Shown piece after piece: positions 4,231-51,208 of a stretch of DNA of 64,000 nt. The notes beneath the pieces were generated by a model. The model did not search any database, was not told where the DNA came from, and saw only the letters and a list, made by a program, of their open reading frames with translations. This DNA comes from Proteobacteria bacterium SG_bin7 (GTDB taxonomy: Bacteria; Bdellovibrionota; Bdellovibrionia; Bdellovibrionales; SG-bin7). A program made the translations under genes and the position numbers. The DNA lies in contig LWDK01000040.1 of assembly GCA_002083485.1 (NCBI GenBank), positions 3,723 through 67,722 of the forward strand, read 5' to 3'. Position 1 is the first letter of the stretch; every line of letters starts with the position of its first letter.

Positions 4231-4306
4231 TACATTCTCGGCACCCAAATTGCTAATGGTATACTAATTACTTTAGTTAACTTTAACAACTTTAGGGACG
4301 TCAATT

Positions 4307-16458: not shown

Positions 16459-18270
16459 ATGTCTAGGCTATTATCCAGGGGGAACTGTATTAAAGAAACG
16501 CGCTCAGTGAAGATATTTTTGTTTTTTTCATTTTTTACGGCACTTACCGCCTTCTCTATTGCATTGCCATTTTTTAAACCCACAGCAACTATTGAGTCGG
16601 CAGTTATTTTCGCCGCTTCACTATTTGGAATGTTGCTTGCAAAAAAACTGTCCTTTCTCGAGGCGGAAATTGTCGCGAAACTACTAAAGGCCGCCGACGA
16701 CGCCGAACGGGCGAGCCAAATCAAGAGTGAATTCTTGGCGAATATGAGCCACGAAATCCGCACTCCCATGAATGCTATCATGGGTATGGCAGAGCTTCTC
16801 AATGAAACACATCTTAACGATGAACAGCAACGCTATGTGAATATATTTCGTAAGGCTGGAGAAAATCTTCTCGGAATCATTAACGATATATTAGACATTT
16901 CAAAAATTGAAGCCGGACATTTAAAGGTCGAATACATGGATTTTAACCTTCGCGATTTAGTCGAAGACACTGCCGAGCTTGCCGCTCCTCGTGCTTTTGC
17001 AAAAAATCTCGAAGTCTTTTGCCACATTGATTCTACACTTGAAAATTCATTTAGCGGCGACCCCTTCCGCATTCGTCAAATTGTGATGAATCTTGTGGGC
17101 AACGCCATCAAATTCACGGCCAGTGGGGAGGTTCGCATTACCGTCACCCCGAACACCGAAAAGGACAGGCGCGGCAACCTTATGCTTGCAGTTTCCGACA
17201 CGGGCGTTGGCATTCCCCCAGAGGCTCAAACAAAACTATTTCAATATTTTCAACAAGCCGACGCGTCCGTCACAAAGAGATTTGGCGGTACCGGGCTCGG
17301 TCTGGCGATTTGTAAAAAGCTGGCCGAAATGATGAATGGAGAAATTTGGTTCCAAAGCACGCCCGATGTTGGCACCACTTTCTATTTCACGCTATCATGC
17401 GCTAAAGCTCAACAAGCAAAGGACCAAAAACTTTCTGAGATTACCGACAGCCTTAAGGACAAAAAGGTACTCATCATTGATGACCGGCCAACCAACCGAA
17501 AAATACTAAAGGAAATGTTAACTCCCTACGGCATTGAAATTGCCGAGACCGACAATTGGACCGGAGGGTGGGAACATGTCCAAAACAAAAAAGTTGATCT
17601 CGTCATCTCTGAATTTAAACTGTTAAGCGGAGAAGATGCCCTTAACTTTGTTACCAAAATTAAAAAGAATAGCGATTACAAAAAAACTGGAATTATCCTT
17701 TTAAGCTCTGACTACGTTGATGTGACCCGTGTTGAGCTATATGAAATGGGTGTCGCGACTGTGCTTTACAAGCCAACACGCCGCGATCAATTGCTTCGCG
17801 AAATGGCTAAAGCCCTAGCATTTGATGACTTTAAAAAAACGGGTGAGACAAAAGCCCCGTCCCCTCCTATAACTAGCGCCAAGTCCTACAAAATTCTCCT
17901 TGTTGATGATTCCGAAGACAACCGCATATTAATTTTAACGTACCTAAAGAAAACGGGACATAACGTCATCCAAGCTGAAAATGGTGCAGAGGCCGTCACG
18001 AAAGTGAAAGAAGGAAAATTCGATATCATTTTATTGGACATGCAAATGCCAGTGATGGACGGTTATAGCGCAGCACGAACAATTCGCGAGTGGGAATCAG
18101 CTAATAAGTTAAGCCCAGTTCCAATTATCGCACTTACGGCCTATGCTTTAAAAGAAGAACAAGAAAAGTCCTACGCTGCCGGCTGCAACAAACACGTCTC
18201 AAAGCCAGTATCTAAACAACAAATTCTCGATGCAATCCAGGAATACTGCGGAGAGAAAAAAGCCGCGTAA
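16459..18270 (+). CDS. Hybrid sensor histidine kinase (HisKA-HATPase - pseudo-receiver - receiver)
   Basis: 603 aa with two N-terminal TM segments. H-box [16 protein letters not shown] boxes ([25 protein letters not shown]). REC1 has Glu at the acceptor position ([10 protein letters not shown], codon 17611-17613). REC2 is canonical ([26 protein letters not shown]). Confidence 0.9.
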
Positions 18271-18302
18271 GGTGCCTGACAACCACTTGCTCTGTCATGC
18301 GT
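18271..18302 (+). repeat. Copy A of a 32-nt dispersed motif GGTGCCYGACAACCACTTGMTCTGT...GCGT
   Basis: ggtgcctgacaaccacttgctctgtcatgcgt begins directly after the kinase stop codon (18268-18270). It is 27/32 identical to 51148-51179. Confidence 0.6.
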
Positions 18303-18667
18303 CACAAATTTAAAGGATCCGAGTTTTCTAATAGCGCTTTTATTTCGACGGCAATTTTCCCTGCTCCCACTTTAACATCCTCCATCTTCTCCTCTGCGGA
18401 ATCCAAAGCCCCTATCGCAGCCAATTTTTCCATTTCGCCTACAATTTGGTTCATAAAGCTGGCATGAAAATTACAAACTAGGTTTTTAAAAGCATGAATA
18501 GACGCTTTGACTGTATCGGCCTCCCCCGACAAAAAACTTTCTTCGATGTCTTTTAAAGACTTTTCAAAGGAATCTAGAAAACGATTCGCAAAACGTCTGA
18601 AAATAATCTCGTCGCCAACAAATTGTTTTACCATCGCAGGATAATCAATGAGTTTTGTCTGCGGCAT
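18302..18667 (-). CDS. Hpt-like domain protein
   Basis: 121 aa, all-helical. ..DTVKASIHAFKNLVCNFHA.. sits at the position expected for the Hpt phospho-His helix. More divergent than the other Hpt proteins here. Confidence 0.55.
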   Translation of the reverse strand: MPQTKLIDYPAMVKQFVGDEIIFRRFANRFLDSFEKSLKDIEESFLSGEADTVKASIHAFKNLVCNFHASFMNQIVGEMEKLAAIGALDSAEEKMEDVKVGAGKIAVEIKALLENSDPLNL

Positions 18668-18717: not shown

Positions 18718-19113
18718 ATGCTGTGGCAAGAACTACTACAAATAGCACTTGGCGAAGGGTCTTGGGAATTTTCACGTTCTTCTGGTCCAGGTGGACAGAA
18801 TGTCAACAAGGTTGAAAGTCGGGCCGTATTCCGCTGGAACATGAAAGGCTCCAGGTATTTTTCTTCAAAGTTAGTCAAGTACCTCACAAAGTCCGGTGAC
18901 ATTATCGTGGGGAGCGATCGTTTTCGGGACCGCGAACAGAATCGCCGCGATGTTATTGAAAAATTGAAAGTGCTATTTGAGGAAACATTTTATGAAGCTC
19001 CTCCGCGCAAGAAAACTAAAATTCCAAAAAGCGCCAAACGAAAAAGGCTAGAAAGTAAAACAATACGAAAAGAAATTAAGAAGGGAAGAAGAAAAGTTTC
19101 ATATGATGACTAA
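18718..19113 (+). CDS. arfB: Alternative ribosome-rescue factor ArfB (RF-1 domain peptidyl-tRNA hydrolase)
   Basis: 131 aa. GGQ motif SSGPGGQNVNKVESRAV plus a Lys/Arg-rich C-terminal tail (PKSAKRKRLESKTIRKEIKKGRRK). Confidence 0.8.
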   Translation: MLWQELLQIALGEGSWEFSRSSGPGGQNVNKVESRAVFRWNMKGSRYFSSKLVKYLTKSGDIIVGSDRFRDREQNRRDVIEKLKVLFEETFYEAPPRKKTKIPKSAKRKRLESKTIRKEIKKGRRKVSYDD

Positions 19114-19143
19114 ATACTTCCGCGGCGGAGGTAAATTTTTTTA

Positions 19144-19172
19144 GTGGGGCATCTATATAGCCCCATTTTGTG
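19144..19172 (+). terminator. Rho-independent terminator after arfB
   Basis: GGGGC (19146-19150) pairs with GCCCC (19160-19164) around a 9-nt loop, followed by attttgtg. Confidence 0.5.
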
Positions 19173-20076
19173 ATATATTTTCTCAGTTACTCCTAAAAAC
19201 CAAACTAAAGTTTCTTACGGCCTGGCACGCGTCCTGCTATGTACACCTCAAGTGTTCGATAGCAGCGATGCTAGTCAGAACTCCGGCGGAGGTAGATTCC
19301 GCAGACAGAATTATCCGGTTGCTGTTTAAGCCTGGATCAACCTCGGATGGGGTAACGCATACGAGGGAAGCTGATCGACAAAATTTTTAGGAATTCGTAC
19401 TAAAAATTTGGCGGACTGGTAGGTTGTAGCGAAAGCGAACTTGTTAGCTCAAATAGTCAATGATCGTTGATACGAACGACGGGAGACTAGAGTTTAGCCG
19501 AGCTTGTTAGAACACAAGGCGAAGGCAATTTTTGTTGGCCAAGAACTGGAACATTTGCAGCCAACGATAAACTCAGTGAGCACAAAGACAACATGCCAGT
19601 AGGGAGAGATGATGAAAGCACGGAACCACTTAATGGTCGGTAGCGGACTTCGACGCTAGCAAAAGTGGTTGAATAAGTTAATGCTGTAAAATTGAGTTTT
19701 TGCGGTGTTAACGAAATCAATCACCAAGCCACTATGTGGGGCAGATAAGGTCGCAAAGCTCCTAAAAAGAGCGAGGACCTTTAGAGTAGAACTTTTTGGC
19801 CATGTGCTTAAAAAGTTTTTGTGGCGTGGCTTAAGCCAAAAGTTTAAGCCTAGGGCTTTGGAAATAACTTTAGTTTCAATTGGGTATGCTTCGAAGTTTA
19901 AAGCTTGACCAGAAGGAAGTTAAAGGAAATCCAAGACCTGAGAGCTAGCTCTCGAGCTGATTTGGGGAAATCCCAATGGTCAGTTCCTTACAAAGGGTGG
20001 CGGAGCCGCTAGATGAATATGTCGCCCATGTTACTTCTAGCGTGCCACCGCCCTGTGTAGTTGTTATGATTTTTTC
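19173..20076 (+). ncRNA. Candidate large structured noncoding RNA, family not recognised
   Basis: The 963-nt gap between the arfB stop (19111-19113) and the next ATG (20077) has no ORF over 77 aa in any frame. At least 13 local helices can be read by eye, for example 19381-19390/19400-19409 (10 bp), 19665-19672/19717-19724, 19790-19797/19810-19817, 19828-19834/19844-19850 and a nested terminal hairpin at 19996-20049. GAAA and AAA loops and G-U pairs fit only the + strand. Confidence 0.4.
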
Positions 20077-20769
20077 ATGAACTGTAAAAAAATCTTCACG
20101 ATTTATCTCCCTCTCTTAATTATCTCTATTATAATATGGCCAAAACTTCCGACCCAGGACTCCCCTGCCTATTTTAATTTTGCGGGAGAACCTTCGCATA
20201 ATATTCTGTCAAACATTCCTTTTCTTTTAGTTGGACTGTTCGGGATTCTCTCTTTACGTTGGAGAAAAATAACGAAAATTAACTTTTTAACGAGTAGTTA
20301 TATTTTTTCACTTGGAATTATTTTAACAGCATTTGGCTCCACTTATTTTCACGCCTATCCAACTCCCGAAACACTCTTTTGGGACCGCCTGCCGATGGCT
20401 ATAACTTTTTCTGGAATGCTTGGTGTAATTACGACCGACCGCTTGTTTCCGCAATTAAAAACAGGTTTCATCTACCTAATTCTTCTCATCAGCATCCTCA
20501 CAGTTATTAACTGGTCATTCGGAAACCGTGATTTGCGACCTTACCTCATTATTCAGTTTGTAGGTGGATTTTACGTTTTTCTCACCGCCATTTGCACCCC
20601 GAGTAATATCCTAGCAAATAAAAAAGTATTTTTGTCGACCTTCTTTTATGTGCTTGCTAAAGTCTTTGAAGTTTATGATCTGCAGACCCTAGAGACATTG
20701 AAAATTACTAACGGCCACACACTTAAGCATTTTAGCGCCGCCATCTCTGCATTACTCCTTTTGCCCTAA
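20077..20769 (+). CDS. Ceramidase-like (alkaline ceramidase family) integral membrane protein
   Basis: 230 aa with ~7 hydrophobic segments. ..YFHAYPTPETLFWDRLPMAITF.. and a C-terminal ..GHTLKHF.. resemble conserved His/Asp positions of bacterial ceramidase-domain proteins. Confidence 0.4.
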   Translation: MNCKKIFTIYLPLLIISIIIWPKLPTQDSPAYFNFAGEPSHNILSNIPFLLVGLFGILSLRWRKITKINFLTSSYIFSLGIILTAFGSTYFHAYPTPETLFWDRLPMAITFSGMLGVITTDRLFPQLKTGFIYLILLISILTVINWSFGNRDLRPYLIIQFVGGFYVFLTAICTPSNILANKKVFLSTFFYVLAKVFEVYDLQTLETLKITNGHTLKHFSAAISALLLLP

Positions 20770-21085
20770 CTGCACAAACGTCAGAGGGCAAATAACCTCC
20801 AAAAAAAAATCAAATCGATAAAAATTAAAAATAAGAACGGCATGGATGTTGCTTTGTTAAAGATCCGTGAAAGACATTGTCAAAAACATTCTCACCTTGT
20901 TGTTTTTTTTAACGTCGATGAATCTGATAAAAAAAGACTCCATCCAAATCAATCCTATTTATTTGGCAGCTCAAGAAATAATTCTAATAATACAAGGCTG
21001 GCAGAATTTCGACGATGCCTCTTTAGATAAAAACTATATTTTTAAAAATAAAAGTAGAAAACAGCTCGAAGGAGAAATCCTTCTA

Positions 21086-21235
21086 ATGTCGCCGTTTCGT
21101 CCGCAGTTGATCCAACTAATTCGGGTTGACTGTCACGCCTACGACAAATTGATGCGAGTACACACCCCATCGGCGATATTAAACTCGCAGGCTACCCGCC
21201 GCTTCCTGGACTCTCCATCCAGCCGTGGCGTTTAA
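21086..21235 (+). CDS. Possible small protein (49 aa), unknown function
   Basis: The ATG is preceded by GAAGGAG (21068-21074) and followed by a GC-rich hairpin. It is the 3' part of ORF-track ORF 20867..21235, whose GTG start has no Shine-Dalgarno sequence. Confidence 0.25.
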   Translation: MSPFRPQLIQLIRVDCHAYDKLMRVHTPSAILNSQATRRFLDSPSSRGV

Positions 21236-21272: not shown

Positions 21273-21350
21273 TTCCTTTGAGGATTATGTGTTTGACAGA
21301 ATCATTCCCAGATTTCTAGCATTTAAGTAACAAATATTATGGAGGATTTT

Positions 21351-22112
21351 ATGAGGCTTTTAGTACTCGTATTTGTATTTTTAGGTTTGTTAGGCTGTAA
21401 CAGCGGTGGCGGCGGAGGTGGCCATAGTTTTGGCCAGGGCAAAGTGGTCACTACTCCCCTTTCTAGTGAGCAGAAAGCAAGTTTTGTGCTTCTTCTTGGT
21501 TCGCATGGACGTGCCCAAAATGCTTACATGAGGCTTGGGTATCCAAAGGACAAGTCGACTGACGAAACCGAAATGAAAATGTATGAACTGCTGTTAGGTG
21601 CAGGCTGTAAATACGAAAAGGTGCCCAAGAAAACTGGCGATACTTATATTGTTGAAGAATCGATTGCGAGCTCTGGATGCCCTGTAAATTATTTTCAACA
21701 TATCGAAGCCACAGAAACGAAAGCGATTGTTTCACAAAAATATTTGGCACTAACAGATGTCTATAAAATGCTGAATGATGTTGTCGGAATAACCCTCGAT
21801 GCCGAATCTAGAATTGCCGGGCGAAACGCAGCTGCAGAAGGAACCGGAAAAATCAGCTCCAAAGCTTACGGTGAACTTCCATACTATATCTTTGGAACTA
21901 TTCAATCGACCGAAGATGGTAAAAATGGAAAGATTCGCACCGGCCTTGGGGTGCAAATGCCTTTTGGTCTCGTCCAGATAGTTGGAACTACAACGACTGT
22001 TGACGGTAAAACCACAGCAGAAATTGAAATCAACGGCGAAAAAATTGATAAGTCGACGTCGCCAGAATTAATTCCATTTCGAAAACTGTTAGCGAGATAT
22101 TTACTTTTTTAA
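21351..22112 (+). CDS. Lipoprotein, unknown function
   Basis: MRLLVLVFVFLGLLGCNSGGGGGG contains a lipobox. Start set to ATG 21351 because GGAGG (21342-21346) lies 4 nt upstream. Confidence 0.6.
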   Translation: MRLLVLVFVFLGLLGCNSGGGGGGHSFGQGKVVTTPLSSEQKASFVLLLGSHGRAQNAYMRLGYPKDKSTDETEMKMYELLLGAGCKYEKVPKKTGDTYIVEESIASSGCPVNYFQHIEATETKAIVSQKYLALTDVYKMLNDVVGITLDAESRIAGRNAAAEGTGKISSKAYGELPYYIFGTIQSTEDGKNGKIRTGLGVQMPFGLVQIVGTTTTVDGKTTAEIEINGEKIDKSTSPELIPFRKLLARYLLF

Positions 22113-29095: not shown

Positions 29096-29155
29096 TGTTC
29101 CCCCCCCGGGAAGAGTTCTCCCAAACTCTGGTACTCCCAGTTCACAGCAATCAAA

Positions 29156-29893
29156 ATGCCAAATTTATTTAGAATTGAATTTGACGAATTTCTTCCTTCG
29201 GGCGAGTATTCCCGCGGAAGGTTCGACATGGAAGGACGATTAGAAAATCTTTTAAATTTTGTACACGAGCAAACCACGGGAAGCAAAGACCCCTCGCATG
29301 ATTTCTTGCACATTTCTCGTGTTTACAAATGGGCTTTAAGAATTGGTCAGAAAGAAGGGGTAAACCTCCGCATACTCCTACCTGCCGCCTTACTACACGA
29401 TCTCGTGAACTTAAGTAAAGATCATCCCCACCGCGCTAAAGCTAGCTCTATGTCGGCTGTAGCAGCTGATCGAGTTTTACTTAATCACAATTATTTAAGT
29501 GAGGAACGAAAAAAAATCTGTGATGTGATCATCGAACATAGTTTTTCTTTAGGCAAAAAACCCTCTTCACTCGAATCCGCAATTCTTCAAGATGCTGACC
29601 GCCTCGACGCCTTAGGAGCAGTTGGAATTATGAGAATGGTAACCTGTGGATGCCTTATGCGTCGGGTATATTATCATGCCGAAGACCCTTTTGCAAAAGA
29701 GAGGGTACTCGATGATCAGACCTTTACGATCGATCATGTTTACAAAAAGCTTTTTAAGCTTCCAGCCCTTATGAACACCGAAATGGCTTTGTGTGAGGCT
29801 AAAGAACGAATGAAATTTATGGAGTTATTTATAGCCCAGCTCAATCACGAAATAACTACACTTCCGCGTGAAGACGATACCCTTTGGACTTGA
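29156..29893 (+). CDS. HD-domain phosphohydrolase
   Basis: Contains HDFLHISRV, LLHDLVN and DADRLDALGAVGI. Start set to ATG 29156 (MPNLFRIEF); ATG 29228 is also possible. Confidence 0.7.
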   Translation: MPNLFRIEFDEFLPSGEYSRGRFDMEGRLENLLNFVHEQTTGSKDPSHDFLHISRVYKWALRIGQKEGVNLRILLPAALLHDLVNLSKDHPHRAKASSMSAVAADRVLLNHNYLSEERKKICDVIIEHSFSLGKKPSSLESAILQDADRLDALGAVGIMRMVTCGCLMRRVYYHAEDPFAKERVLDDQTFTIDHVYKKLFKLPALMNTEMALCEAKERMKFMELFIAQLNHEITTLPREDDTLWT

Positions 29894-48748: not shown

Positions 48749-51148
48749 ATGAAGCTGAATTTAAAGCACTTATTATCAATTCCATTTATATTTTTAACGC
48801 AAATCGCGTTTGCGAGTGAAGCTGAACTCGTCGTTCCAAATTTGGGAGTGAACTTCAACGTTTTCGGTTCACAATATTCTGGTAGCGGCTTGCTGATGGC
48901 AGGTCTTGTCGTAGTTGTCCTCGGGATGATCTTCGGTTTACTTGAATATTTGAAAATTAAAAACCTTCCTGCCCATAAATCAATGCTCGACATCTCATCG
49001 TTAATTTATGAGACGTGTAAGACTTACCTCTTACAACAAGGAAAATTTTTAGCACTTCTTGAGGTGGCAATTGGCGCCTGTATCTTTTTCTACTTTTACT
49101 ACCTATCTCACATGGAGTTTGGAAAAGTAATGATGATTCTTTTCTGGTCGGTGATGGGTATCTTAGGAAGCTTCTCTGTCGCTTGGTTCGGAATTAAAAT
49201 TAATAATTACGCCAACTCAAGAACTGCATTCGCATCTCTGGCAGGCAAACCTTACAACGTGATGGACATTCCTTTGCGTGCGGGTATGTCAATCGGCGTT
49301 CTTTTGATTTGCGTAGAACTACTAATGATGATTATTGTTCTACTTTTCATTCCTGGAGAAAATGCCGGAAGTTGTTTTGTAGGGTTCGCGATCGGTGAAT
49401 CTCTTGGTGCGTCGGCTCTTCGTATTTGCGGCGGTATCTTTACCAAAATCGCGGACATTGGCTCTGACTTAATGAAAATTGTATTCAAAATTAAAGAAGA
49501 TGATGCTCGTAACCCTGGTGTTATCGCTGACTGTACGGGTGACAACGCAGGTGATTCGGTTGGTCCCACGGCTGATGGCTTTGAAACTTACGGTGTAACT
49601 GGTGTTGCCCTTATCAGTTTTATTATCTTGGCTGTTGGAAAAACTTTGGGCACTGATGGTTCTCCCGTTGCCGCTCCGGGCGGAGAAGAACTACAGGCCA
49701 AACTTATAGTATGGATCTTTGCTATGCGCGTTCTTATGATCGCAACATCCATTGGTTCTTATTGGGTGAATGGGATGATCTCTAAAGCTATGTTTGGCAA
49801 TAAAGATCATTTTGATTTTGAAGTTCCACTGACTTCTCTCGTGTGGGTAACTTCAATTGTTTCTATTATTGTGACTTTCGCGGTTTCAAAGATTCTTCTT
49901 GGCGATATGAGCGAATCACTTTGGTGGGTGCTTTCGTTAATTATCAGTTGCGGCACTCTCGCAGCAGCAATTATTCCTGAGTTCACCAAAGTTTTTACAT
50001 CCGCAAAATCTCGTCACGTCGCTGAGATTGTAAGTGCGTCACGTGAAGGTGGCGCAAGTCTTACAATTCTTTCTGGGTTAGTTGCTGGTAACTTCTCGGG
50101 CTTCTGGAAAGGCATGACGATTGTTGGTTTAATGCTTATTGCATTCCTGACCTCAGCTCATGGCTTAGACCAATTCATGGTCTATCCATCGGTATTTGCG
50201 TTTGGCCTTGTTGCGTTTGGCATGTTAGGGATGGGCCCCGTCACTATTGCGGTTGATTCTTACGGTCCAGTAACCGACAACGCGCAATCGGTATTTGAGC
50301 TTTCGCAAATTGAAAGCATTCCAAATGTTGCAAAAGAAATCCAAAAAGATTTCGGCTTCATTCCAAACTTTACCAAAGGAAAAGAATATCTAGAAGAGAA
50401 CGATTCTGCGGGAAATACATTTAAAGCGACAGCCAAACCAGTTCTCATCGGAACTGCAGTTATTGGCGCAACGACAATGATTTTCTCGATCATTCTTCTT
50501 TTAAAATTGAAACTTGATCTTATGAACCCTGAAGTTCTCCTTGGACTCATTTCAGGTGGGGCTGTGATTTACTGGTTCACAGGAGCCTCTATGCAAGCTG
50601 TAACAACTGGTGCGTACAGGGCAGTTGAGTACATTAAAAAGAATATTAAACTTGAGAACCAAACAAAAGCCTCTGTGGAGGCCTCTAAAAAGGTTGTTGA
50701 GATTTGTACACAGTACGCTCAAGCCGGTATGGTGAATATCTTTTTAACGGTGTTCTTCATCACACTTGCATTTGCGTGCTTCAACCCAACGTTCTTTGCA
50801 AGCTATTTGATTTCGATCGCCGTGTTTGGTTTGTACCAAGCGATGTTTATGGCAAATGCCGGTGGCGCCTGGGATAATGCTAAGAAGGTTGTGGAAGTTG
50901 ACCTGAAAGAGAAAGGCACTCTACTTCACGCCGCAACAGTTGTTGGTGATACAGTCGGTGACCCATTCAAGGACACTTCGTCTGTGGCGCTGAACCCCAT
51001 CATTAAATTTACAACATTGTTTGGTCTATTAGCCGTTGAAATTGCTGTAAGTGCAAAAGAAACCGCATTCTATCTTGGCGTAGTCTTCTTCATCGTAGCG
51101 CTTTTCTTCGTCTATCGTTCATTCTACGGAATGAGAATTACTCGTTAG
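48749..51148 (+). CDS. hppA: Membrane-bound proton/sodium-translocating pyrophosphatase
   Basis: 799 aa. Contains GGIFTKIADIGSDL, DNAGDSVGP, DSYGPVTDNA, GGAWDNAKK and GDTVGDPFKDT. Confidence 0.9.
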   Translation: MKLNLKHLLSIPFIFLTQIAFASEAELVVPNLGVNFNVFGSQYSGSGLLMAGLVVVVLGMIFGLLEYLKIKNLPAHKSMLDISSLIYETCKTYLLQQGKFLALLEVAIGACIFFYFYYLSHMEFGKVMMILFWSVMGILGSFSVAWFGIKINNYANSRTAFASLAGKPYNVMDIPLRAGMSIGVLLICVELLMMIIVLLFIPGENAGSCFVGFAIGESLGASALRICGGIFTKIADIGSDLMKIVFKIKEDDARNPGVIADCTGDNAGDSVGPTADGFETYGVTGVALISFIILAVGKTLGTDGSPVAAPGGEELQAKLIVWIFAMRVLMIATSIGSYWVNGMISKAMFGNKDHFDFEVPLTSLVWVTSIVSIIVTFAVSKILLGDMSESLWWVLSLIISCGTLAAAIIPEFTKVFTSAKSRHVAEIVSASREGGASLTILSGLVAGNFSGFWKGMTIVGLMLIAFLTSAHGLDQFMVYPSVFAFGLVAFGMLGMGPVTIAVDSYGPVTDNAQSVFELSQIESIPNVAKEIQKDFGFIPNFTKGKEYLEENDSAGNTFKATAKPVLIGTAVIGATTMIFSIILLLKLKLDLMNPEVLLGLISGGAVIYWFTGASMQAVTTGAYRAVEYIKKNIKLENQTKASVEASKKVVEICTQYAQAGMVNIFLTVFFITLAFACFNPTFFASYLISIAVFGLYQAMFMANAGGAWDNAKKVVEVDLKEKGTLLHAATVVGDTVGDPFKDTSSVALNPIIKFTTLFGLLAVEIAVSAKETAFYLGVVFFIVALFFVYRSFYGMRITR

Positions 51149-51179
51149 GTGCCCGACAACCACTTGATCTGTGGCGCGT
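51148..51179 (+). repeat. Copy B of the 32-nt dispersed motif
   Basis: ggtgcccgacaaccacttgatctgtggcgcgt starts at the last base of the hppA stop codon (TAG 51146-51148). It is 27/32 identical to 18271-18302. Confidence 0.6.
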
Positions 51180-51183
51180 TAAA

Positions 51184-51208
51184 AGGAGAGCTTAGGCTCT
51201 TCTTTTTT
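51184..51208 (+). terminator. Rho-independent terminator of hppA
   Basis: AGGAGAGC (51184-51191) pairs with GCTCTTCT (51196-51203) around loop TTAG, followed by T5. Confidence 0.6.

Follow-up and report, generated by a model that had tools for sequence, protein, structure and literature searches.

An ORF-less group II intron-type ribozyme RNA conserved between arfB and a ceramidase-family gene in Bdellovibrionales-like bacteria

The window analyzed here, i.e. the whole stretch of 64,000 nucleotides from Proteobacteria bacterium SG_bin7, includes an interval between two protein-coding genes for which no protein product is apparent, which raises the question of what this interval encodes and whether it serves the host. 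The upstream neighbor is an arfB-type gene with an RF-1 domain (18718–19113; Pfam PF00472, E 1.6e-14), the product of which is 78% identical to its orthologue in a related genome, L001. The downstream neighbor encodes a ceramidase-family membrane protein (20077–20769; PF05875, E 1.5e-7, just below the cut-off). Both genes and all the features described below are on the + strand, with the exception of one spacer to which no strand is assigned. An earlier note on this DNA placed the arfB stop at 19113 and the ATG of the ceramidase-family gene at 20077, and these coordinates and the gene context are correct, as is the claim that the interval 19114–20076 is free of any credible ORF: the longest start-to-stop frame spans 77 amino acids and the longest stop-to-stop frame 87 amino acids. 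A Pfam search with the ten longest frames of the interval gave no match even at E ≤ 10, no ORF is held in frame across the orthologues of the element, and no codon periodicity is detectable in the variable columns of the orthologue alignment (92/81/89). With no Pfam similarity, no conserved frame and no periodicity, a decayed protein gene or a small ORF was dropped from consideration.

The same element is found between arfB and the ceramidase-family gene in three metagenomic relatives (L090, L091 and L092), so that, with the window, four sampled genomes of a Bdellovibrionales-like clade carry it at one and the same site. L001 represents the empty site: only 12 nt separate the stop codon of arfB from the start of the ceramidase gene, and the two encoded proteins can be aligned with those of the window over their full length. 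The element lies between two intact genes, not inside one. In particular, the ceramidase-family gene is intact from M1 and its N-terminus aligns with that of the L001 orthologue from M1, which rules out an intron within this gene. ArfB homologues are also present on short contigs (P0010 and P0011, 82% identical).

The RNA encoded in the interval belongs to the group II fold. The Rfam model RF02003 (group-II-D1D4-4) matches 19284–19434 along its full length (model positions 1–138 of 138) with 50.1 bits, compared with a gathering score of 49 (E 4e-8 over the whole window); among the orthologues, L090 scores above the cut-off as well (54.0 bits), and L091 and L092 fall just below it (47.4 and 47.3 bits, respectively). 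The earlier note had assigned the RNA to an unknown family, and the match above the gathering score does not bear this out: because the match is confident, which by that note's own reasoning makes the RNA known rather than novel, the kind of RNA is already known. The likeness to the GOLLD, ROOL and OLE classes that it had drawn finds no counterpart in Rfam either, given that GOLLD, ROOL, OLE, raiA and HEARO are not detected in the window at the gathering threshold, nor in 18900–20300 at E ≤ 10.

On the same strand, 520 nt past the end of the RF02003 match, begins domain V (DV; 19954–19986), which reads GAGCUGAU-UUGGG-GAAAU-CCCAA-UG-GUCAGUUC and features the AGC catalytic triad (19955–19957), a 2-nt bulge in the 3' strand and a GAAA-type loop. 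This is the single match of a custom DV descriptor in the 64 kb (both strands), compared with none in 200 simulated 64-kb sequences; the descriptor also matches L090, L091 and a control intron, L086, the DV of which is near-identical to that of the element and which scores 45.2 bits on RF00029. All four copies share the triad and the lower helix of DV without change, and the upper helix shows covariation from G-C to A-U. The Rfam D5 model RF04336 is the top match for this domain, but a weak one (13.5 bits, E 0.68). The DV/DVI model RF00029 has no match at E ≤ 10 in 18900–20300 or 19900–20076, and none at E ≤ 1 in L090–L092, because the domain VI (DVI) of the element takes the form of a 73-nt hairpin that lacks a conserved bulged A.

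Taken together, the RF02003 match, the DV descriptor, the consensus fold and the conservation delineate an ORF-less ribozyme RNA of the group II intron type, about 802 nt long (19252–20053), with domains I to VI in the canonical order from 19252 to ~20053, where the 3' end was placed by likening CCACCGCCC to the consensus of the DVI 3' strand. The multi-branch domain I-like part (19252–19626) is defined by the minimum free energy (MFE) structure and by consensus helices 3–19, with covariation; in the MFE structure, its closing helices pair 19266–19284 with 19603–19622. The 5' and 3' strands of this domain may resemble those of the Oceanobacillus IIC intron. Within domain I can be recognized the IA hairpin (19286–19302), IB (19303–19327), IC1 (19335–19376), with a GNRA loop and the GC of an epsilon' candidate at 19370–19371, IC2 (19381–19409) and ID (19415–19600). 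The sequence of the IC1 GNRA loop, the GACAAA junction and the GC of the epsilon' candidate are all kept, and the epsilon'/lambda region reads GAAGC, that is, an IIB-like AARC bulge by the criteria of PMC12350094. A branched domain II-like part (19621–19744; consensus helices 20–24) includes a 15-bp hairpin at 19677–19712, and a conserved joiner, GGGGC-R-GAU-R, precedes the domain III-like hairpin (19747–19781; consensus helices 25–26, 3 covarying pairs). The domain IV-like region (19783–19952) is the least conserved part of the element, although its helices 27–33 covary, and contains no ORF; specifically, an intron-encoded reverse transcriptase/maturase was sought there by inspection of the frames, Pfam searches at E ≤ 10 and codon periodicity, and none was found.

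The claim of a large, structured, non-coding + strand RNA under selection stands. The + strand folds with an MFE of -302 kcal/mol (z -6.4; none of 20 shuffles is as good), compared with -248 kcal/mol for the - strand of the interval. In the consensus fold of the four orthologous sequences (the window, L090, L091 and L092, all of them metagenome assemblies), 96.6% of the cells are paired and 39 of the 258 pairs covary, a number that none of 500 shuffles reaches (12 ± 3), with 4–10 in slid controls. Most of the helices read by eye in the earlier note recur in this consensus, several with compensatory changes, namely 19341–45/19362–66 (4 covarying pairs), 19381–90/19400–09 (2), 19747–52/19776–81 along with its inner GCUC/GAGC (3) and 19790–97/19810–17 (5); those at 19665–72/19717–24, 19534–39/19560–65 and 19286–90/19298–302 are conserved. 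The helix at 19957–83, with CTGA..TCAG enclosing TTGGG-gaaat-CCCAA, is real and turns out to be a domain V of the canonical group II form, and the terminal hairpin, equally real, corresponds to the DVI-like hairpin. Other parts of that list fared less well. The ACAC/GTGT part of the first helix, TGCTAT/ATAGCA, is lost in L090 and L091, and since this inner part lacks conservation and the left arm coincides with the -12 box of a putative promoter (see below), the 5' helix was discarded as an RNA helix; a 3-nt shift of register improves the pairing of TCGTT/AACGA; and the short repeats GTTTAAGCCT and GGCGGAG, which had been thought to allow alternative pairings, are not co-conserved among the orthologues.

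The pattern of conservation is far from uniform. Among the three closest genomes (the window, L090 and L091), the element is 88–94% identical, compared with 70–81% for the arfB and ceramidase genes; versus L092, the identity is 73–76% for the element and 61% for the ceramidase gene, and the ceramidase proteins are 53–57% identical between the two subclades. An AT-rich, poorly conserved spacer upstream of the element (19173–19221), defined by its identity to L090 and L091, provides a local, near-neutral baseline. The identity of domain I among the three closest genomes is 92–95% (92–93% for the window versus L090 and L091) compared with 51–71% for the spacer (51–56% for the window versus L090 and L091, and 71% for L090 versus L091). 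The domain IV-like region is 71–72% identical to L090 and L091 and has 39% invariant columns, versus 82–94% in DV and the 5' end. Thus, the core is under strong purifying selection with compensatory changes, and the adjacent spacer and domain IV drift; the compensatory changes imply that the selection acts on the fold.

Upstream of the spacer, the intrinsic terminator of arfB that had been proposed at 19144–19172 is confirmed by direct reading of the sequence, with a GC-rich hairpin (UGGGGC/GCCCCA) followed by a T-run, and by the presence of the hairpin in all three loci that cover the region; in L090 and L091, the hairpin and the T-run are kept, and the loop and the upper stem differ. A terminator scan detects an additional terminator-like hairpin with a T-run at 19115–19143, which is confined to the window genome and corresponds to a gap in L090 and L091 in the alignment.

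With regard to the history of the element, the identity matrix of the ceramidase proteins groups L092, which has the element, and L001, which lacks it, as sisters, and therefore the element either predates the whole clade or was gained twice. The spacer and the terminator share the L090–L091 affinity of the element. Recent homing of the intron alone was rejected given that the spacer shares the history of the element and that domain IV has diverged like neutral DNA. Further copies of the element were detected neither in the 64-kb window (repeat search) nor in 1.0 Mb of compared loci (nhmmer with the element profile), and there is no other group II RNA in the window or in the 1 Mb of compared loci. 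Distant-mode blastn of the interval against plasmids and phages found no match, scans of viral contigs for exact occurrences of the DV pattern and of two invariant segments of the element came up empty, and a relaxed search with the ceramidase protein added no close relatives. A metagenome scan with the DV pattern retrieved 8 contigs, in 7 of which the match is due to chance, the 'upper helix' being non-complementary; the eighth, L086, carries an unrelated canonical intron that was used as the positive control.

The 5' end of the element is sharply demarcated. All four copies start with GUGUU (19252–19256), 32 nt ahead of the RF02003 match, with U instead of G at the fifth base of the group II consensus GUGYG, and complete conservation sets in abruptly at CUCAA|GUGUU. 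The CUCAA pentamer (19247–19251), invariant in all four copies (alignment columns 1–5), could be either the predicted transcription-start region or a residual IBS1. However, no conserved segment of domain I is complementary to it over at least 5 nt, as EBS1–IBS1 pairing would imply; the only complements to the 5' flank are 4 nt long (e.g. UUGA at 19467) and sit in predicted stems, so that at most a 4-bp UCAA/UUGA contact between the element and its 5' flank can be drawn. Furthermore, the positions at which an IBS2 would be expected (-13 to -6) differ among the copies, in contrast to the invariance of domain I.

At the other end, the long DVI-like hairpin (19988–20060), with the invariant terminal loop UCGCC (~20023–20027), forms in each of the four copies (z from -3.2 to -7.4) and covaries from CGCUAGA/UCUAGCG to CGUCAGA/UCUGACG; its base is formed by J5/6 UUACA paired with UGUAG of the 3' flank. 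There is no conserved candidate among the four copies for a bulged branch A located 7–8 nt from the 3' splice site: in the window and L092, A20047 faces C in a 1x1 C.A loop, in L090 and L091 it forms a Watson–Crick pair with U, and the position of an alternative unpaired A, just before UGUAG, is occupied by G in the window.

A sigma-54-type promoter motif, TGGCACG-CGTC-CTGCT (TGGCACGCGTCCTGCT; 19223–19238), immediately follows the spacer and is the putative promoter of the element. It matches TGGCACN6TGCW exactly and keeps the GG-N10-GC spacing of the consensus TGGCACG-N4-TTGCW. In L090 (CGGCACACATCCTGCT) and L091 (TGGCACACATCCTGCT), the two genomes with which the promoter region of the window was compared, the boxes and their spacing are conserved; specifically, GGCAC and CTGCT and the distance to GTGTT are kept, and the bases between and after the boxes vary. 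The predicted start of transcription is at ~19249–19251 (counted from the C of GC at 19237), 1–3 nt before the first ribozyme base. There are two exact matches to TGGCACN6TGCW in the 64 kb (both strands), and the other one is inside a coding gene. Additional sigma-54-like sites of the window fall between genes, in the correct orientation, and no GAFTGA-type activator is encoded in the window. As a motif match, a sigma-54 site of this kind can also arise by chance, as the exact match within a gene illustrates. A second candidate promoter, detected by a promoter scan, is located at the end of the element: a sigma-70-like match, GTGCCA-17-TATGAT with TGn (20042–20070), with a -10 box that ends 6 nt before the ceramidase ATG and reads TATGAT in L090, TATAAT in L091 and TACAAT in L092. 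Judging from this box, the ceramidase gene may be transcribed from a promoter of its own into an mRNA that lacks a leader. A U-rich tail follows the long terminal hairpin, but it is not adjacent to a GC-rich stem.

How, then, can a group II ribozyme persist between two genes, neither of which it interrupts? The explanation that we favor, and to which we give about even credence, is that the element is a vertically inherited, host-retained, ORF-less group II ribozyme that is driven by its own promoter and is located upstream of, or forms the leader of, the ceramidase gene. The host seems to keep this RNA for a purpose because the element persists at one spot and is better conserved than the neighboring genes. 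Under this explanation, the RNA would be transcribed from the predicted sigma-54 promoter, starting 1–3 nt before the first ribozyme base, and because the predicted start abuts the element and the arfB terminator lies upstream, there would be essentially no 5' exon. At the other end, the ribozyme RNA would end 24 nt before the ceramidase start codon. The ribozyme would no longer be a mobile intron and would instead make up the first part of a transcript dependent on sigma-54 that extends as far as the ceramidase gene or into it. With DV invariant, no conserved branch A and no detectable EBS1–IBS1 pairing, Mg2+-dependent hydrolysis appears to be the likeliest activity, rather than lariat splicing. 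Such hydrolysis could occur in cis at the 3' boundary (after 20053), freeing a ceramidase mRNA with a short leader, or in trans on another nucleic acid; of the two, the self-processing leader acting in cis is the single most likely mechanism. Several observations weigh against this proposal. RF00029 has no match and the match of the D5 model is weak. In model group II introns, hydrolysis at the 3' splice site is inefficient when no 5' exon is bound. The -10 box 6 nt before the ATG suggests that the ceramidase gene has its own promoter, in which case the ribozyme would be a separate RNA, not a leader. Finally, the 4-bp UCAA/UUGA contact could, as in class IIC introns, support splicing. The fully specified version, i.e. 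an ex-intron ribozyme of canonical domain order, without a protein gene, exons or a branch site, that is inherited vertically at one chromosomal site across a bacterial clade, is transcribed from its first nucleotide by its own sigma-54 promoter and, domesticated by the host as a regulated catalytic RNA, functions either as a self-cleaving leader of the ceramidase gene or as a trans-acting, RNA-guided hydrolase, is held somewhat less firmly, at slightly worse than even.

The most serious competitor, possible albeit clearly less probable, is that the element is nothing more than an ORF-less group II intron of the ordinary kind in the arfB–ceramidase intercistronic region, be it a splicing-only relic or a passenger mobilized in trans. 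It would be transcribed by read-through of the arfB terminator and spliced, perhaps also moved, with the aid of the maturase/reverse transcriptase of a related intron elsewhere in the genome, and the conserved flanks would be exon-binding or homing-site sequences. The complete order of domains, with the D1 match, DV and the DVI-like hairpin, speaks for such an intron, and published bacterial ORF-less introns nearly always accompany related introns that encode the intron-encoded protein (IEP) (PMC4424553). On this view, the invariant CUCAA would be a candidate for IBS1 and the conserved 3' flank for an IBS3-type sequence, with the 4-bp UCAA/UUGA pairing to the 5' flank, and the tight arfB–ceramidase operon of L001 implies that an intron in the spacer would be tolerated. 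However, a conserved terminator separates arfB from the element, the upstream block follows the sigma-54 consensus position by position whereas the would-be IBS2 positions vary, there is no conserved bulged A, and searches of the 64-kb window and the 1 Mb of compared loci revealed no second group II RNA. Moreover, because neither gene requires splicing, 92–95% identity of the core against 51–71% in the spacer is unexpected of a relic; the spacer and the element have a single history, unlike the case of homing; and non-mobile derivatives are said not to persist in bacteria (PMC4424553).

A stand-alone catalytic RNA acting in trans, in the manner of the HYERs, is less probable still, and on balance unlikely. 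Such an RNA would be a sigma-54-dependent ncRNA in its own right that ends near 20060–20076, with the ceramidase gene expressed separately, and an EBS-like loop would bind and hydrolyze target DNA or RNA, for example, in defense or in predator–prey biology. An ORF-less RNA with an invariant catalytic DV and a promoter motif abutting its 5' end fits this scenario, a separate, leaderless ceramidase mRNA would be in keeping with the conserved -10-like box 6 nt ahead of the ATG, and the U-rich tail after the long terminal hairpin would fit its 3' end. Possible guides are available in the form of invariant single-stranded loops, ACUGGA (~19545–19551), UCGCC (DVI) and the palindromic GAAUUC (IC2), and HYERs are protein-free, ORF-less group II nucleases, some of which dimerize via palindromic loops (PMC11754743, PMC12990946). 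Against it, a search for targets complementary to the conserved loops found none, and the U-rich tail is not beside a GC-rich stem, which makes termination before the ceramidase gene doubtful. Furthermore, HYERs are class IIC, multi-copy RNAs of 0.4–0.64 kb and this one is ~0.8 kb long and single-copy in the searched sequence, and its strict tie to one gene junction across the clade suggests a role in cis. The initial interpretation of the interval, a new 'ornate' large ncRNA outside group II, is by now hardly credible, and neither is a decayed protein gene. The size and helix density do resemble those of the large ornate RNAs, and RF00029 has no match, but the full-length RF02003 match above the gathering score, the only DV-descriptor match of the window 520 nt after it on the same strand, and the absence of Rfam matches to GOLLD, ROOL, OLE, raiA and HEARO all speak against it; the lack of Pfam similarity in any frame, of a conserved frame and of codon periodicity speaks against a decayed gene. 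As far as these searches reach, both readings were rejected on the evidence of RF02003, DV and coding potential.

Bacterial group II introns are seen as selfish retroelements, and ORF-less copies are rare and usually reliant on related introns within the same genome (PMC4424553). The element resembles these introns in the end-to-end match of the 5' half of domain I to RF02003 and in the canonical DV, with its AGC triad, 2-nt bulge and GAAA-type loop, as well as in the order of the six domains and the variability of domain IV. Unlike RF02003-type introns, it has no IEP, RF00029 match, conserved branch A or EBS1–IBS1 pairing of at least 5 bp; it is also intergenic, and the promoter motif would leave a '5' exon' of 1–3 nt. 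What is unusual about this copy is that it is ORF-less, syntenic, highly conserved and, apparently, exon-less. The GOLLD, ROOL and OLE RNAs are similar in size range, helix density and intergenic position, but no covariance model of theirs matches, and the fold is that of a group II ribozyme.

If the promoter and the lack of exons are as predicted, the element would be a natural instance of a host taking a group II ribozyme into its service. It would then offer a tractable system, 800 nt beside one gene, for studying the cellular role of protein-free group II ribozymes, and would bear on the transition from intron to cellular RNA, and hence on the origin of spliceosomal RNAs from group II ancestors. 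Even a plain intron spliced in trans would still be a record of long-term vertical inheritance of a bacterial ORF-less intron.

Among the known systems, C.te.I1 of Clostridium tetani (PMC4424553, PMC3919590) is likewise an IEP-less bacterial ribozyme that persists without obvious retromobility, but it lies within a coding region, which it splices in alternative ways, and its exons are functional, whereas the present element is intergenic, apparently exon-less and syntenic across genomes in which the ceramidase proteins are 53–57% identical between subclades. The HYERs (Liu et al. 2024, via PMC11754743 and PMC12990946) are similarly ORF-less, with an intact core from which hydrolysis is expected rather than branching; they belong to class IIC, are ~0.4–0.64 kb long, and are reported to occur in multiple copies per genome and to carry a 6-nt target-recognition site (PMC11754743, PMC12990946). 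In contrast, the element is ~0.8 kb long, single-copy in the searched sequence and fixed beside one gene. The arfB terminator is ~80 nt upstream of the element rather than adjacent. The circularly permuted (CP) group II RNAs (Roth et al. 2021, PMC8637638) are also conserved, ORF-less and argued to serve the host, but in these, D5–D6 precede D1–D4 and a bulged branch A is present, as opposed to the canonical order and the lack of a conserved branch A seen here. If host recruitment is the correct reading, the element would stand beside the HYERs and the CP group II RNAs, distinct from both.

The interval between arfB (Pfam RF-1 domain) and a ceramidase-family gene, both on the + strand, extends, as the earlier note had it, from the arfB stop at 19113 to the ceramidase start at 20077, and is essentially devoid of open reading frames, with 77 aa for the longest start-to-stop ORF in the gap and 87 aa for the longest stop-to-stop frame. 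None of the ten longest frames of the interval shows Pfam similarity even at E<=10, comparison of orthologues reveals neither a conserved small ORF nor codon periodicity in the element, and no intron-encoded protein (IEP) was found in it. The note had proposed a candidate RNA of unknown family, in the range of GOLLD, ROOL and OLE in size and architecture; none of these, nor raiA or HEARO, gives an Rfam match, and the Rfam scan of the whole window yields a single one, RF02003 (group II intron D1-D4-4), at 19284-19434 (+), over model positions 1-138 of 138 (50.1 bits, with a gathering score of 49). About 520 nt past this match, on the same strand, lies domain V (DV) at 19954-19986 (+), GAGCUGAU-UUGGG-GAAAU-CCCAA-UG-GUCAGUUC, with all the textbook features: the AGC triad at DV positions 2-4, a lower helix of 8 bp, a 2-nt bulge on the 3' strand, and an upper helix of 5 bp topped by a GAAA-type loop. 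For the 5' end, the sole GUGYG-like candidate is GUGUU at 19252, 32 nt upstream of the RF02003 match. Folding of the + strand produces a multi-branch, domain I-like domain, closed by pairing of 19266-19284 with 19603-19622, and then D2-like, D3-like and D4-like domains, DV and a DVI-like hairpin. The element (19252 to ~20053, +; about 800 nt) is thus a ribozyme of the group II type that lacks an ORF.

A descriptor of the DV features has a single match on both strands of the 64-kb window, namely 19954-19986, and none in 200 simulated windows; it also finds the orthologous sites and a control, L086, a metagenomic intron that was itself picked up by the DV pattern. The DV of this control is almost identical to that of the window element and is accompanied by a canonical DVI, with 45 bits on RF00029. 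The window element remains unmatched by RF00029 at any window size tried because its domain VI is a 73-nt hairpin (19988-20060), and its best DV-only match, to a group II D5 family, is non-significant (13.5 bits). The control sequence (L086 229-302, JGI contig Ga0315310_10008403) is the 3'-terminal part of a canonical, unrelated group II intron. It has in common with the window element the GAAAU pentaloop and an unusual lower helix of DV, GAGCUGAU/GUCAGUUC; its DVI, in contrast, is normal and includes a bulged A, and its contig ends 230 nt upstream of DV. It may represent an ORF-containing lineage that gave rise to the window element.

For 19173-20076, the folding energy of the + strand is -302 kcal/mol, compared with -253 +/- 8 for shuffled sequences (z -6.4) and only -248 for the - strand, in agreement with the + strand RNA proposed from inspection. 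Most of the helices read at that stage recur in the consensus structure of the four orthologues, the exceptions being TCGTT/AACGA, which does not hold in the register listed, and the first helix, TGCTAT/ATAGCA with ACAC/GTGT, the inner part of which is missing from the orthologues, pairing of the upstream block with the intron start not being kept; the short internal repeats are not co-conserved in the orthologues either. In the consensus, 96.6% of the cells are paired, compared with 32-45% when the partners are slid. Among the 258 pairs, 39 changed on both sides yet still pair; shuffles give 12 +/- 3, none of the 500 attaining 39, and controls with slid partners give 4-10. The count comes from only four sequences, with the structure predicted from the same alignment. 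The sequence of the IC2 loop (19390-19399) is GGAAUUCGUA; the loop contains the palindrome GAAUUC in the three closer genomes (the window, L090 and L091) and AAUUCGU in all four, and UCGCC of the DVI loop (20022-20028) is invariant in all four copies; the cores of both loops are constant though the stems covary, and these loops are candidate sites of kissing, dimerisation or tertiary contacts.

Among the few sequences compared, all of them metagenome assemblies, DNA identity among the three closer genomes is 88-94% for the element, compared with 77-81% for arfB and 70-76% for the ceramidase gene; against the more distant L092 the element is 73-76% identical, where the ceramidase gene shows 61%. 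Invariance declines from 94% in the first 34 nt to 82% in DV and 39% in the D4-like domain, a gradient expected of a ribozyme. Between the window and L090/L091, identity is 92-93% in D1, 71-72% in D4 and 51-56% in the adjacent spacer, so that the least constrained parts of the element diverged like the neighbouring neutral DNA. Selection acts on the fold and the catalytic core of the element, which has been inherited along with its surroundings.

The three metagenomic loci L090, L091 and L092, found via protein homologues, carry the element at the same arfB-ceramidase junction (RF02003, 47-54 bits), and no additional relatives were found in the protein database. In the nearest genome of the GTDB set, a Bdellovibrionales MAG (L001), the gene order is that of the window, with 12 nt from the arfB stop to the ceramidase start; both flanking proteins align end to end with their window counterparts, which makes this junction an empty site and places the element between genes. 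By ceramidase identity, the element-bearing L092 and the element-free L001 are mutually closest (64%, compared with 53-57% to the window subclade); hence the element either is ancestral and was lost in L001, or was gained twice at the same junction. The L090-L091 affinity of the element is shared by the spacer and the terminator, which implies one history for the whole intergenic block and counts against recent homing of the intron alone.

Immediately 5' of arfB (16459-18667 and further upstream) are the genes of a hybrid histidine kinase/response regulator and of three Hpt-domain proteins, a cluster conserved in all relatives, in the same order in L001, L090 and L091. A 42-nt direct repeat (CGTAAGGTGCCTGACAACCACTTG...; 18266-18307 and 51143-51184, 81% identical), one copy of which is found where the convergent hybrid histidine kinase and Hpt genes meet, could be a shared intergenic motif or terminator. 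Directly past the arfB stop, the window genome alone has an extra hairpin with a T-run at 19115-19143 (+; a gap in L090/L091), so that two tandem terminator-like structures follow arfB in the window.

Upstream of the element, a conserved block, TGGCACG-CGTC-CTGCT (19223-19238, +), conforms to the -24/-12 consensus of sigma-54 promoters, including the correct GG-N10-GC spacing. The window has one further exact match, within a coding gene, so chance matches do happen. L090 and L091 preserve both boxes and the interval from them to GUGUU, with variable bases between and after the boxes. The predicted start, at ~19249-19251 (12 nt from the C of GC), is 1-3 nt upstream of GUGUU, and the onset of 100% conservation coincides with it exactly. 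Further sigma-54-like sites in the window lie between genes, in the correct orientation, and one of them, 3' of the ceramidase gene, is conserved; no GAFTGA-type activator is encoded within the window. This second conserved motif, CGGCATGGATGTTGCT (GG-N10-GC; window 20838-20853 (+), L090 4656-4671, L091 6769-6784), is located downstream of the ceramidase stop and upstream of a small ORF without a family match (20918-21235), followed by a 257-aa gene without a Pfam match (21339-22112). The neighbourhood may contain two sigma-54-dependent units. The sites at 4239-4254 (+) and 29146-29161 (-), each preceding the start of a gene on the same strand (4307 and 29095) by ~50 nt, suggest regular use of sigma-54 promoters by this organism. 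At the other end of the element, a sigma-70-like match at 20042-20070 (+), with an extended -10 TGT-TATGAT, ends 6 nt upstream of the ceramidase ATG. A -10-like hexamer (TATGAT, TATAAT or TACAAT) is conserved 6-8 nt upstream of the ATG, as TATAAT/TACAAT in L091 and L092. In the window, no Shine-Dalgarno sequence is present between the hexamer and the ATG, and a leaderless ceramidase mRNA is possible; in contrast, L001, without the element, has an AGGTGA Shine-Dalgarno instead of this arrangement.

We infer that the element has its own sigma-54 promoter and essentially no 5' exon, and that its transcript reaches the ceramidase gene or runs on into it. A bulged branch adenosine is not conserved among the four copies: A20047 is opposite C in two of them and U-paired in the other two, and the alternative unpaired A is G in the window. 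Without a branch site or a 5' exon, the element is unlikely to splice through a lariat, and the chemistry to be expected is hydrolysis. Judging from sequence, there is an even chance that the element is a self-processing leader, detaching from a short-leader ceramidase mRNA: sigma-54-dependent transcription would start 1-3 nt upstream of the ribozyme, the RNA would extend up to or into the ceramidase gene, and the ribozyme would separate itself by hydrolysis, leaving a ceramidase mRNA with a short leader. Against this reading, the conserved -10 box could be the ceramidase gene's own promoter, and in model introns 3'-site hydrolysis is poor without a bound 5' exon.

An ordinary ORF-less intron, reached by read-through from arfB and spliced in trans, appears rather improbable. 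The group II layout is there. Several traits set the element apart from a functional intron: it lacks an IEP and a conserved branch A, a sigma-54-like motif precedes it, the arfB terminator hairpin is kept upstream of it, no domain I loop matches at least 5 nt of the 5' flank in an EBS1-type pairing (only a 4-nt UUGA, within a stem), and at the 3' end UUACA of J5/6 pairs with UGUAG of the flank. Still less credence is given to a stand-alone, trans-acting ribozyme akin to the HYERs (hydrolytic endonucleolytic ribozymes), ORF-less like the element. HYERs are of class IIC, 0.4-0.64 kb long and multi-copy (PMC11754743, PMC12990946), whereas the element spans about 800 nt, and neither the window nor 1.0 Mb of sequence from the collected loci contains a second copy. 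In circularly permuted group II RNAs, the order of the domains is permuted and the branch A retained (PMC8637638), unlike the element, in which DV follows the D1 match and a conserved branch A is missing. Published ORF-less introns of bacteria are rare, mostly co-occur with IEP-encoding relatives and reportedly do not persist (PMC4424553). The kind of RNA is already known, and the present copy is unlike each of the described kinds.
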